Origin: an uncultured Desulfobacterales bacterium
Lineage (GTDB): Bacteria; Desulfobacterota; Desulfobacteria; Desulfobacterales; UBA11574
Reading direction: 5' to 3'
Assembly (NCBI GenBank): GCA_937998305.1
Contig: CALLDL010000033.1
Coordinates: 6,094 to 70,093 of the forward strand
Length of the DNA stretch: 64,000 bases
Under the pieces are notes generated by a model. That model worked only from the letters and a program-made list of their open reading frames with translations, was not told where the DNA came from and made no database searches. The position numbers were made by a program, and so were the translations under genes. Positions 52,151 to 57,026 of the stretch are shown piece by piece (within the stretch, counting starts at the first letter, position 1; the number at the start of each line of letters is the position of its first letter).

Positions 52151-52400
52151 CTAACTATTGTCCATCCATAAATGGTCTTTTTGTCCAATCTCTGCGCTTG
52201 CCCTGTGAAATGCAGAGCCTATTTCTCTGGGGTTATGCTCAAAAAATAATCCTCGGAATATTAAACATATGCCTGCCTGTCCCGATAGATTTTCCATCGG
52301 GGCGGTTATTTTTTTCGAATGCCCCTCCGGGGCGTAGGCCCTACGGGCCGGAGGCTTGATCTTGAACAAAAATCCTAATTTATGGATTGACACTAACTAT
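52151..52400 (+). mobile_element. MITE family B copy 1 (234-bp core 52159-52392 flanked by 8-bp direct repeat CTAACTAT)
   Basis: TIRs TGTCCATCCATAAAT... and ...ATTTATGGATTGACA. Identical CTAACTAT at 52151-52158 and 52393-52400. Internal GC-rich palindrome CCTCCGGGGCGTAGGCCCTACGGGCCGGAGG. Confidence 0.8.
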
Positions 52401-52671
52401 ATATTTTTTCTTGCAGTTTTTCCTGTTACCTGAATTTCCTAATGTGTAACAAATGTAACAGAAATTGTGATATTCATTTCACAATTTTTAAAGTTGTTGC
52501 TTTTTAATATTTGCTAACTAATTGAAATGTATGGGACTAAAAAAAATGATTTTTCCTGCATGATTTTTGCATAATGACAGTAAACAATTTTGAAAAACGC
52601 ATTTATAAGCAAGCCGAATCTTTTGCTTGCTAAATATCTATAGAAAGATTCGAAAATAATCTGTATTTATC

Positions 52672-52824
52672 ATGATTCAAATTTTGCCCGATAACGGAGG
52701 CCGGCGGTCAGGTACGGATAGACGGGAGTTTAGTTATACTTCTCACATACCCGAACGGAGATCTGGCAAAGAAAGAAGAAGTGGTTCAGATCGAAGGCAA
52801 AAACCAAGAACATACAAAAAATAA
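52672..52824 (+). CDS. possible 50-aa Arg-rich peptide with three RRSG-type repeats (below ORF-track cutoff)
   Basis: My translation: MIQILPDNGGRRSGTDRREFSYTSHIPERRSGKERRSGSDRRQKPRTYKK. Two hairpins follow, including a strong terminator. No obvious SD. Confidence 0.35.
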   Translation: MIQILPDNGGRRSGTDRREFSYTSHIPERRSGKERRSGSDRRQKPRTYKK

Positions 52825-52899
52825 AGATAGTTAGAACATAAATTTAAAGTTAAAAAAGCAGCGCCGGTAATGGCGCAAACCCTTATATTAAAGACGCTA

Positions 52900-52940
52900 A
52901 AAGCAAATCCCGCCAAAAAAATGGCGGGATTTGCTTTTAG
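52900..52940 (+). terminator. strong rho-independent terminator (bidirectional shape)
   Basis: AAAGCAAATCCCGCC-aaaaaaat-GGCGGGATTTGCTTTT. Confidence 0.7.
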
Positions 52941-53063
52941 GCTGTTCAGCTATCCACTCCCGTTCAAATTTGTCTTTTACAGATTTCAAGAGTTCTCAAG
53001 TAAGAACTGTTTCCATTAGATGATTAATGTAACAGGTTGACAATTTGAGCAAACCATGGGTGT

Positions 53064-53597
53064 CTATCGCTCGATTCCGGTTCGCGCTTTAACCCCCCGG
53101 TTATAATAATGTTTGATTTCTTTTACATCACTGACCAGATCGGCCATTTCTAAAAACGCTTCAGGAGCACGACGACCGGTCAAAATAAATTCGACATTTT
53201 TCGGCCGTTCATTAAGGAGTTCGAGCACGTCTTCGGTTGTAATTAAATCAAACCATACCGCAACGTTAATTTCATCGAGAATGATGATGTCGTATCGATG
53301 GGAATGCATCGCTTTCCGTGCTTGTTTAATGCCTTGTTGTGCCTGGTCGATATGTTTTTGCGTTATTTCTTCTCGATGAACACATTCTACATCTCCATAT
53401 TGTTCAATGGTAATACAGGGGTGGTCACGCAGCGCTGTCAATTCACCATAGTGCTGGCCCTTCATGAACTGACCGATATAGGTTTTCATTCCATACCCGG
53501 CAGCTCGTATGGCCAAACCTATAGCTGCGGTTGTTTTGCCTTTTCCATTACCGGTGTATATTTGAATACATCCTTTATTGTGTGTCTGTCGGTCCAT
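53064..53597 (-). CDS. cobO: cob(I)yrinic acid a,c-diamide adenosyltransferase (CobO/BtuR type)
   Basis: GCIQIYTGNGKGKTTAAIGLAIRAAGYG...YDIIILDEINVA...ILTGRRAP. A start at MDRQTH (53597) avoids overlap with the upstream gene. Confidence 0.85.
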   Translation of the reverse strand: MDRQTHNKGCIQIYTGNGKGKTTAAIGLAIRAAGYGMKTYIGQFMKGQHYGELTALRDHPCITIEQYGDVECVHREEITQKHIDQAQQGIKQARKAMHSHRYDIIILDEINVAVWFDLITTEDVLELLNERPKNVEFILTGRRAPEAFLEMADLVSDVKEIKHYYNRGVKARTGIER

Positions 53598-54952: not shown

Positions 54953-55209
54953 AAAACCCTCTTAATTGAACATACCGATTCATTGATTGAGCCGAAAATT
55001 GTCACCGATAATTAAGCACATTCTAATCACAAAAGCAGCAATTGTCCAATAAACTCTTCAACCATTCACCTTATCATAAAATGATCAACCATATAAATAT
55101 GGGTGCGACACTTGAGTCATCAGTTTGAACCCATATAAAGGTTTATGTTTTCATAAGTAACTTGACATAAAGGATTTTTAACCATAGATTTGCCTGGTAA
55201 ATTATTAAA

Positions 55210-55752
55210 ATGAACTTAACATCAGGGAGTTGCGCTATGGCCTCATTAAATCGTGATGAAAAAAGTCAATCCGAAATTTTATTTAAGAAAGATACCGGAG
55301 ATCAACAACAGATGCTTTTGGATTGCGGTTATTCGGAAAAGGCGGTTCAATATTTTATTGAGCAGCCGTATATGGGAAGTCTGCCGGATGCCGATCAAGT
55401 ATCCGATATGCTGGGATCATGCGGGGACACCATGAAAATCTTTCTTAAAATCGATGATAATACAATCACGGATATCAGATACCAGGTGCTCGGCTGCCCG
55501 GGTGCGATTTCTGCTTCAATGGCCGCTGTGGACCTGGTAAAAGGTAAAAGTATTGAACATGCCAGAAAGTTGAATGATGGAGATGTGTTCAACCAACTTG
55601 CTGATATTCCGGTGAAAAAACACCACTGCATACAGCTTGCCGTTAAAGCGCTTCACAAGGCCATTGATGAATATAAAAATGGGCACAGTGATTTAAAGGA
55701 TGTAGAATGCCCGTCGACCTGCTCTGAACCGCAGGATTGCTGCAAAAAATGA
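55210..55752 (+). CDS. NifU/IscU N-terminal-domain-like Fe-S scaffold protein with Cys-rich tail
   Basis: GSCGDTMKIFLKID...YQVLGCPGAISASMAAVDLVKGKS...KKHHCIQLAVKAL. C-terminus CPSTCSEPQDCCKK. Start uncertain. Confidence 0.75.
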   Translation: MNLTSGSCAMASLNRDEKSQSEILFKKDTGDQQQMLLDCGYSEKAVQYFIEQPYMGSLPDADQVSDMLGSCGDTMKIFLKIDDNTITDIRYQVLGCPGAISASMAAVDLVKGKSIEHARKLNDGDVFNQLADIPVKKHHCIQLAVKALHKAIDEYKNGHSDLKDVECPSTCSEPQDCCKK

Positions 55753-55760
55753 TTAGTTTT

Positions 55761-56759
55761 TTATGATATTTCTTCATAAAATTCTGCGGGAGCGAGTTCC
55801 TTAAACGCTCCTTTATCGTTGCTTGTCAAAAACTTTCGGATATCCGTACACAGATCGCATTTGTTCAGATAGACATCTCTTTTCGAACTGAAACCATAAT
55901 TAGCATAAGCCATATCATGTAATCCCCTGATTCCGGATTTTGCCAGTATTGTTAGAACCGGATATTTTTCTCTGGAAAACGGTCTTCCTAAATCTTCTAT
56001 TGCAACGCCGATTCCCGAACAGAGTCCAGGAATGAAGTTGCCGAAAAGATCTACATGGAAATGGCTGGTATCGGAAAGCTGATTTCTACAACTTCCAGGG
56101 TTCTCCGTCATAATTTTTTGTGCAGAATTTCCAGGGAACTTGGTTCTGAACGTCTCCAGGGCTCGCCCACCCATATGAACCCAGTACCGACCGAGGGTAT
56201 TGACCAAATAATCCTTTCCGAATTTATTGGAAAATTCTTCAAATGTATGGGTGGTGTTCGGTTCAAAGGCCGAAAGATCCTTGTAAAAATCGTTGATCCA
56301 GGGAAACAATCCGATTCCCACTTTTCTTCCGGCATCGATCACGCCTTTTACTTTTAAAAATGGAATAAATTCATTATGAAAAGGACTGATGGAAACCAAA
56401 AGGGTGCCCAGCCCGTTTGCTATCAAACGTTCCAGAATAGTAACTGCGGATTCGGTATCTTTAAACCAAGAAGAATTTGTCTCCACATAGTCGATTCCCA
56501 TTCCGACCCTATTTGCAACCTTTAAAATATTTTCCAGCTTTTCCGGCCGAAGCATGGGTTCACCACCGCCGATGTGCACGGACCGGCAACCCAGTTCCAA
56601 AACCCGGGTAAAACATTTTTCAGCGGTTTCAGAATCCATATATTCTTTCCCCCGGTTCGGGCTGCAATTATACAGGCAGTGCCTGCAGCGCGACGTGCAA
56701 AAATAGTTGGTGATCAACCCGCCGGAAAAAAGTTTGCGAAGTGTAAAATCGCCCATCAT
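55761..56759 (-). CDS. radical SAM protein of unknown function
   Basis: CxxxCxxC motif [10 protein letters not shown] near the N-terminus. GGGEPML motif. Confidence 0.75.
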
Positions 56760-56775
56760 TAATTTCCAAAAGTAT

Positions 56776-57026
56776 TTAGTTAGTGTCCATCCAGAAATGA
56801 GGATTTTTGTTTAATATCAAGCCTCCGGCCCGTAGGGCCTACGCCCCGGAGGGGCATGCGAAAAAAAATAACCGCCCCGATGGAAAATCTATCGGGACAG
56901 GCAGGCATATGTGTAATATTCCGAGGATTATTTTTTGAGCATAACCCCAGAGAAATAGGCTCTGCATTTCACAGGGCAAGCGCAGAGATTGGACAAAAAG
57001 ACCATTTATGGATGGACACTAGTTAG
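56776..57026 (-). mobile_element. MITE family B copy 2 (inverted relative to copy 1; core 56784-57018)
   Basis: The reverse complement is nearly identical to copy 1, with only about ten differences by eye. Flanks are TTAGTTAG and CTAGTTAG. The right flank contains the TAA stop (57023-57025) of the HAD gene. Confidence 0.8.

Follow-up and report, generated by a model that had tools for sequence, protein, structure and literature searches.

Two inverted near-identical repeats in a Desulfobacterales contig are very probably separate insertions of an undescribed family of miniature transposable elements that duplicate six base pairs of their target

We analysed a 64,000-nt stretch of DNA from an uncultured Desulfobacterales bacterium (contig CALLDL010000033.1; the whole stretch is referred to here as the window), in which two near-identical repeats lie in opposite orientation on either side of a block of host genes. 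These repeats are very probably separate insertions of one non-autonomous DNA transposon, a MITE (miniature inverted-repeat transposable element), from a large undescribed family of the Desulfobacterales. Copy 1 occupies positions 52158-52393 on the + strand (236 bp) and copy 2 positions 56783-57019 on the - strand (237 bp). In a direct alignment they differ by 8 substitutions and one 1-bp indel over 237 columns (96.2% identity), which shows that the inverted, near-identical pair described by a first-pass annotation of the sequence is real and that its estimate of about ten differences was right (9 in 237 aligned columns). A repeat search of the 64-kb window returned the pair as inverted arms of 165 nt (52151-52315 and 56862-57026, 99%) and 100 nt (52309-52408 and 56768-56867, 92%), and found no second inverted pair of at least 40 nt. 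When one mismatch was allowed, matches to the 15-mer TGTCCATCCATAAAT were confined to the four element ends, and CTAACTA was found at all four flanks of the two copies. The parts of the two copies are as follows.

52152-52157 (+): left target duplication of copy 1, TAACTA
52158-52393 (+): MITE copy 1, a 141-bp core with modules A, B and C; an ortholog lies at the same site in locus L289
52197-52232 (+): nested hairpin module A of copy 1, 36 bp, CTTGCCCTGTGAAATGCAGAGCCTATTTCTCTGGGG (in copy 2, 56945-56980); not in the L289 ortholog
52276-52302 (+): nested hairpin module B of copy 1, 27 bp, CCTGTCCCGATAGATTTTCCATCGGGG (in copy 2, 56875-56901); not in the L289 ortholog
52323-52354 (+): nested G+C-rich hairpin module C of copy 1, 32 bp (in copy 2, 56822-56853); in L289, diverged
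52394-52399 (+): right target duplication of copy 1, TAACTA
56777-56782 (-): target duplication on the right side of copy 2, TAACTA on the - strand and TAGTTA on the + strand
56783-57019 (-): MITE copy 2, with modules A, B and C as in copy 1, in the opposite orientation
57020-57025 (-): target duplication on the left side of copy 2, TAACTA on the - strand and TAGTTA on the + strand; it holds the TAA stop codon of a HAD-like gene

The ends of the element and its target were defined from 132 copies, 78 metagenomic and 54 genomic (L-numbers are the locus labels of the retrieved contigs). The consensus element reads GTGTCC...GGACAC and has a 17-bp perfect terminal inverted repeat, GTGTCCATCCATAAATG. 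Among the 78 complete, distinct metagenome copies, the base before TGTCC is G in 73 and the base after GGACA is C in every one. The first-pass annotation had proposed that ends, duplication and target be settled by aligning many copies; this could be done, and its own ends proved to be one base short on each side, so that each window copy was reset to start one base earlier and to end one base later (G/T...C). The terminal repeats of the window copies have 0-2 mismatches per end; in copy 1, the first base has mutated from G to T and the right terminal repeat has 2 mismatches. Abutting the terminal G...C, the flanking hexamers are perfect direct repeats in 30 of the 78 metagenome copies and in 23 of the 54 genome copies (53/132 together), compared with 3.1 of 78, and a maximum of 9, expected when the pairing of the flanks was shuffled. 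Duplications of 2, 4, 7 or 8 bp, or in a shifted register, fitted less well. These results show that insertion duplicates 6 bp of the target.

The target consensus is y|TARYTA|r, and its commonest form is TAACTA or the reverse complement TAGTTA, which is why both window copies share the same flank. Since TAACTA and TAGTTA are used almost equally (11 and 8 perfect cases), the target is not orientation-specific. The CTAACTA at the flanks had been taken either for a part of the element or for a 7-mer targeted in one orientation; it is neither, being the duplicated TARYTA hexamer, of which both orientations are used, next to an unrelated C. The identity of the CTAACTAT 8-mers reported around copy 1 is fortuitous: in the left 8-mer, the C belongs to the flank and the final T to the element, as its mutated first base, and in the right 8-mer the C is already the element's last base. 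At least 15 different hexamers are duplicated, including TAACTA, TAGTTA, TAAATA, TAGGTA, TACCTA and TATCTA. Because some of them do not end in TA (TAACTC, TATCTG, TAACCA and AACTTC), a duplication of TA only is ruled out.

Independent pairs of filled and empty alleles confirmed the size of the duplication. A net 6-bp gap separates the filled from the empty allele in L179 compared with L120, L031 and L145, in L189 compared with L004, and in L034 compared with L170. The window itself is the empty allele relative to L247 and L021, the difference being the element plus a net 6 bp (38942-39179 and 47844-48012). The elements are 141-250 bp long and contain no transposase gene, only short open reading frames (ORFs) that run into the flanks. 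A target duplication, terminal repeats, small size, dispersed copies and presence/absence differences were found, as in MITEs, and the MITE identity and mobility proposed in the first-pass annotation are borne out by the variable 6-bp duplications, the filled and empty alleles, the occurrence in at least 55 species-level assemblies and the genome-specific variants.

The commonest form of the element is a 141-bp core, 5'-GTGTCCATCCATAAATG...CATTTATGGATGGACAC-3', which has no coding capacity and is represented by 44 copies with 93% mean pairwise identity. It folds end to end as a single hairpin (-48 kcal/mol, z = -8.6; copy 1, z = -5.0). In longer copies, small hairpin modules are added to this core at fixed points and are combined in many ways. 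The GC-rich palindrome noticed earlier inside each window copy is such a hairpin, module C, although it is not perfect: a 2x2 internal loop separates a 7-bp stem from a 5-bp stem. Modules A, C, D and F also occur in other contexts, nested in each other (L168 2775-3000, L044 2885-2911) or in arrays (L166, L208), and hairpins related to module C are found elsewhere both alone and in arrays. The small hairpin modules behave like an independent class of 20-50-bp insertions. At least two further subfamilies, a type 2 of about 190 bp and another 141-bp form, share with the main family only the terminal repeats and the 6-bp duplication; common ends with unrelated interiors are expected if one transposase recognises the ends.

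Small G+C-rich modules of the types CYTGYCCC...GGGG and CCTCCGG...CCGGAGG are found in this way, within each other and in arrays, and also outside MITEs and inside other repeats (loci including L169 7181-7260). The window also carries a second MITE-like family at 21945-22227 and 47845-48097, intergenic, about 250-283 bp long and 88-90% identical, with the terminal repeat CCTGAATCTT...AAGATTCAGG. Its copy at 21945-22227 has an extra hairpin of about 30 bp at about 22092-22121 (CCTGCCCGC...GCGGG), of the same kind as the nested modules, and in L021 a MITE of the main family is inserted in a homologue of this second repeat.

The family is widespread in one bacterial order. The left-end 20-mer TGTCCATCCATAAATGGTCT gave at least 120 matches in metagenomes and at least 120 in species-representative genomes; the genome matches listed fall in 55 distinct assemblies (hence at least 55 species), with up to 13 matches listed per assembly. 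Nearly all hosts among the matches listed are labelled Desulfobacterales, Desulfobacteraceae, Thermodesulfobacteriota or delta proteobacterium, and named examples are Ca. Desulfatibia vada and Eth-SRB2. Two matches lie in bins labelled Nitrospinaceae and Terriglobia, and we suspect mis-binning; a Desulfobacterales bin rich in copies was obtained from the sample that yielded the Terriglobia bin. The core is 92.8% identical between assemblies compared with 95.2% within them, and genome-specific variants, such as GCCCGATCTCGGCG in the JBAUWG01 copies, indicate recent bursts. The window contig recurs in several JGI samples (3300041081-86) with identical MITE copies. The plasmid database gave no matches to the MITE, and in a scan of viral contigs the 17-mer gave 4 matches inside phage genes, which we regard as chance. 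In the literature searched, we found no description of this MITE family and nothing on IS630 elements with 6-bp duplications.

As to mechanism, a trans-acting DDE-type transposase would bind the shared terminal repeats and would join the element ends to target cuts staggered by 6 bp. Several observations weigh against the MITE reading or limit it. Only about 40% of the copies have perfect duplications, and flank decay or rearrangement between copies is needed for the others. Selfish mobility alone does not account for the high conservation, with 92.8% identity of the core between species and continued occupation of orthologous sites. We infer both the transposase and its chemistry, whether cut-and-paste or copy-and-paste, and no autonomous element with both terminal repeats was found in 240 loci (1.86 Mb); the full-length insertion sequence (IS) with the same terminal repeats, for which the first-pass annotation had suggested looking, was not seen in these loci. 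Left ends without a nearby right end were considered as candidates, and each proved to be a truncated end next to host genes (an M16 peptidase, a pyridoxal-phosphate decarboxylase and others). Pairs of terminal repeats 0.5-5 kb apart were in each case two separate MITEs around host genes.

The element could instead be an IS630/Tc1-mariner-type MITE that is moved by an IS630-family transposase, the longer flank identity reflecting a target preference. We consider this unlikely, and it has a number of points in its favour. The termini and flanks read TA|GTGT...ACAC|TA both in the MITE and in the local IS630 clade, the closest clade found, and the target contains TA. MITE positions 17-34 (GGTCTTTTTGC-CCAAT) match the 3' coding end of the transposase of this clade (GGTCTTTTTGC[TTTAG]CCAAT, encoding the conserved ...ILAKAKRP), a loose ATGGAC/ATGGTC motif is shared, and IS630 copies are inserted exactly at the TA beside a MITE end in L130, L133 and L135. 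Locus L119 encodes (2541-3699) a 369-aa IS630-family protein with DDE_3 and helix-turn-helix domains, and its frame runs straight through a 28-bp perfect MITE end. This is the only transposase gene joined to an end of the family, and since the far end of the L119 element bears no relation to the MITE, a deletion hybrid is the simplest account of L119. Close relatives of L119 are ordinary 1.17-kb IS630 elements with GTGT...ACAC ends, TA duplications in CTAG and inverted repeats that are longer than those of the MITE and different from them; apart from the one end of L119, its other end and these relatives share only GTGT/GTGTC and the loose ATGGAC/ATGGTC motif with the MITE. None of the 120 listed homologues of the L119 protein ends as the L119 protein does, no IS630-type gene adjoins any of the 120 genome matches listed, and a tblastn search of all loci with the L119 transposase found only unrelated, distant IS630 fragments (L014, L123). 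Above all, the MITE duplicates 6 bp and not 2: the middle RY and hexamers without terminal TA are duplicated and empty alleles differ by a net 6 bp, whereas the full-length related IS elements duplicate TA only. The element was therefore not filed as an IS630 MITE, because the 2-bp TA duplication that defines that family fails here.

The history of the two window copies was traced in related loci. For copy 2, relatives were found via the radical SAM protein encoded next to it. The empty copy 2 site is seen in L281-288 (75% protein identity), where 22 bp separate the HAD-like gene from the radical SAM gene and a single hexamer lies at the stop codon (...AGATTA TAAACT CAAG...). In L262 and L265-267 (92% protein identity), this site, at which the window has a type-1 element, is occupied by a type-2 element whose interior is unrelated and whose target duplication is the same (L262 6784-6990); either a preferred site was hit repeatedly, or one element replaced the other through the shared ends. 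For copy 1, L289 (87% identity) is syntenic with the window over genes for an HdrA-like protein, the radical SAM protein, NifU, the oxidoreductase, CobO, Smr, PlsY and IspH-UbiA. L289 carries a MITE at precisely the position of copy 1, between the same duplicated hexamers; this MITE contains module C and lacks modules A and B, and copy 2 is missing from L289. Because its MITE occupies the same site with the same duplication, copy 1 is older than the split from the L289 lineage.

An alignment of the two window copies showed a mosaic, with 4 differences in columns 1-197 and 5 in columns 205-232. Identity is about 98% over the left 85% or so of the copies, and over the last 40 bp 12.5% of the positions differ. 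Over the last 40 bp, copy 1 and the L289 ortholog share a derived A (CCT[A]ATTT) and a mutation at the same position of the terminal repeat, and copy 2 has the family consensus at the sites of these derived states. Over the left part, modules A and B and a derived T (TTTTTGTCC) are common to both window copies, and their modules C are identical to each other; the module C of L289 differs from them at 6 of 32 positions. On balance, and by a narrow margin of confidence, we favour gene conversion, in which sequence of the copy 2 type replaced most of the old copy 1. The best reading of the mosaic is that gene conversion, or recombination with a third copy carrying A, B and C, overwrote most of copy 1; simple copying between the window copies fits less well. 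The high identity had been attributed earlier to recent transposition or gene conversion; a recent event is upheld, and the mosaic favours the second option. As points on the other side, the basis of the conversion reading is thin, namely 9 differences, a single shared derived site and a single relative, and the clustering of the differences was tested post hoc (binomial p ~0.004, calculated by hand). The alternative to conversion is that the L289 lineage lost A and B and that a recent duplication took place in the window lineage.

Insertion next to genes was also examined. In both window copies, the left end faces the 3' end of the upstream gene: copy 1 sits downstream of the Smr gene, and the TAA stop codon of the HAD-like gene lies in the duplicated hexamer of copy 2, as the first-pass annotation had noted from the flank. 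The flank of copy 2 carries this stop because the duplicated target contained it. The duplication on the other side of copy 2 is 17 bp upstream of the start codon of the radical SAM gene. Among 112 complete copies in loci L004-L257, an ORF of 80 codons or more that reads into the element is stopped by the duplicated TAR in 16 cases at the left end and in 3 at the right end, compared with 3.9% for control TARYTA sites; the numbers are small and the ORF calling was crude. Duplication of the hexamer lets a gene keep its stop codon after insertion, as the HAD-like gene does. From the sequences, a role at the 3' ends of genes may be possible for some copies.

These observations, together with others, could also mean that the repeat is mainly a functional module conserved between genes (for example a structured RNA or, at the 3' ends of genes, a transcription terminator or attenuator) that is inherited vertically, its mobility being irrelevant or long extinct. 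The long hairpin of the core (z = -8.6), the 92.8% identity of the core across species, the retention of copy 1 at the same site since the L289 split and the orientation bias at stop codons would fit such a module, as would the terminator-like appearance of module B and of the T-run of the core, and the finding that the Smr homologue of another lineage (L060) is also flanked by members of the family. Nevertheless, the variable duplications and the presence/absence alleles show transposition, the several subfamilies share terminal repeats only and have unrelated interiors, and long hairpin folds are generic to MITEs. The window gave no Rfam match at the gathering score, the region 52100-52450 gave none at E<=1, and a terminator scan did not call the element. 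We therefore regard this explanation as improbable, and under the MITE reading exaptation of some copies may be possible, judging from the sequences. A wider picture, to which we give a low probability, is that of an order-wide, unusually conserved set of copies. They would be mobilised by an unrecognised type of transposase (perhaps a relative of IS630 with a 6-bp stagger and a TA-RY-TA target), would land preferentially on stop codons in one orientation, would serve as a landing pad for 20-50-bp hairpin micro-elements and would be homogenised by conversion, with some copies acting as 3'-end (terminator or stability) signals.

The block between the two copies consists of host genes. Its gene content was as previously described, with Pfam matches to CobA_CobO_BtuR, Pyr_redox_2/Pyr_redox_dim, NifU_N and Radical_SAM, and is listed here with the neighbouring HAD-like gene.

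52400-56776 (no strand): host block of 4.4 kb with four enzyme genes and one small ORF; resident chromosomal DNA
52672-52824 (+): conserved Arg-rich ORF, 50 aa
53064-53660 (-): CobO (CobA_CobO_BtuR)
53612-54952 (-): pyridine-nucleotide disulfide oxidoreductase (Pyr_redox_2/Pyr_redox_dim)
55210-55752 (+): NifU_N protein
55761-56759 (-): radical SAM gene (Radical_SAM)
57023-57496: HAD-like gene, with a sub-threshold Pfam match to Hydrolase_3 (20.5 bits against a cut-off of 20.9)

In L289, the genes of the block have the same order and orientation as in the window. Because L289 keeps this order and has copy 1 without copy 2, the block is resident DNA in its ancestral orientation. Homologous recombination within the inverted pair could plausibly, if rarely, invert the block, with repeats of 236 bp that are 96% identical and 4.4 kb apart, and the mosaic implies that these copies, or like ones, recombine. 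A reversible inversion of the block that works as an on/off or orientation switch is nevertheless very improbable. The first-pass annotation had suggested looking for the block in both orientations; only one was found, in all readable population contigs (L001-L003, L268; 7 contigs read), which as assemblies show the majority arrangement only, and in the syntenic relative L289. No recombinase gene was found among the Pfam domains in or beside the block. That the two MITEs moved the 4.4-kb block as a composite transposon is scarcely credible: two like inverted elements do flank a discrete set of genes, but each has its own direct duplication, the outer flanks (TAACTA and TAGTTA on the + strand) are not a direct repeat, L289 holds the block and its neighbours in the same order with copy 1 and without copy 2, and the HAD, radical SAM and NifU genes are adjacent in relatives with or without MITEs.

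The Arg-rich ORF of the block has RRSG/DRR repeats and no Pfam match. It lies between CobO and Smr, in a stretch of the spacer that hardly differs from L289 and is far better conserved than its surroundings. Next to the ORF (52861-52940, -) lie a hairpin of 19 pairs and another one that resembles a terminator. It is probably a real small gene or RNA.

The family is undescribed and its kind is ordinary, as it works like other hairpin-forming bacterial MITEs. The Correia/NEMIS elements of Neisseria and the ERIC/IRU elements of enterobacteria are bacterial MITEs that fold as long hairpins. Like the family described here, they are non-coding, 100-250 bp long and bounded by terminal inverted repeats, they occur as many dispersed intergenic copies, often at the ends of genes, the whole element can form one stem-loop in a transcript, and size variants arise by internal insertions and deletions. 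They have no sequence similarity to the present family, whose hosts are Desulfobacterales and whose nested hairpin modules are separable; Correia elements duplicate TA, whereas the Desulfobacterales family duplicates 6 bp (TARYTA). The IS630/Tc1-mariner group resembles the family in the points given above and differs from it in the length of its duplication and in its inverted repeats. Modular repeats are known in the pneumococcal BOX elements and in the REP/BIME mosaics of enterobacteria and pseudomonads (REPIN/RAYT systems). These too combine hairpin-forming modules variably, have G+C-rich hairpins alone and in arrays, and persist for long across related species; in contrast, the modules of the Desulfobacterales family are inserted, rather than concatenated, in a scaffold that is a genuine MITE, having terminal repeats and duplicating its target. 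REP/REPIN sequences lack a target duplication, form hairpins marked by a conserved 5' tetranucleotide and are linked to a RAYT gene, and the clear 6-bp duplication rules out such an identity for the scaffold of the MITE.

Beyond a routine MITE, the family combines IS630-like ends with a 6-bp duplication, nested hairpin modules and a bias in orientation at stop codons, none of which is yet shown to be a new mechanism, and it also stands out by its very high conservation between species. The repeat has practical consequences as well. With many copies per genome in at least 55 species, it breaks assemblies, and the genomes concerned come mostly from fragmented sediment metagenomes. It may confuse binning, as in the bins labelled Nitrospinaceae and Terriglobia. 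It yields spurious small ORF calls, for example the 48-aa gene called by gene callers inside copy 1 (window 52151-52393 (-); L001 11922-12068); copy 2 contains ORFs of 42-56 aa, the small ORFs in both copies end at the flanking TAG/TAA of the target duplication, and these ORFs are repeat artefacts. With the ends, the TARYTA duplication and the set of modules known, copies can be masked and used as presence/absence markers between close lineages.

Several other features were observed in the window. A 42-nt hairpin repeat occurs three times (28289-28330, 48725-48766 and 51799-51840; CCTTTGAAAC...GTTTCAAAGG, then ...TAAACTNTTAC), and one of its copies lies just upstream of the Smr gene. In the Smr-PlsY spacer, a 41-bp presence/absence polymorphism at about 51743-51783 is present in L001 and absent from L002; as a candidate for a mobile hairpin it was rejected, since the difference is a plain deletion next to a hairpin. 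A 575-aa protein encoded at 49072-50799 (+) has IspH/LytB and UbiA prenyltransferase domains (Pfam) and is conserved in L289. Finally, a 238-nt direct repeat is present three times at 11666-12254, with 70-78% identity and spacings of 252 and 99 nt.

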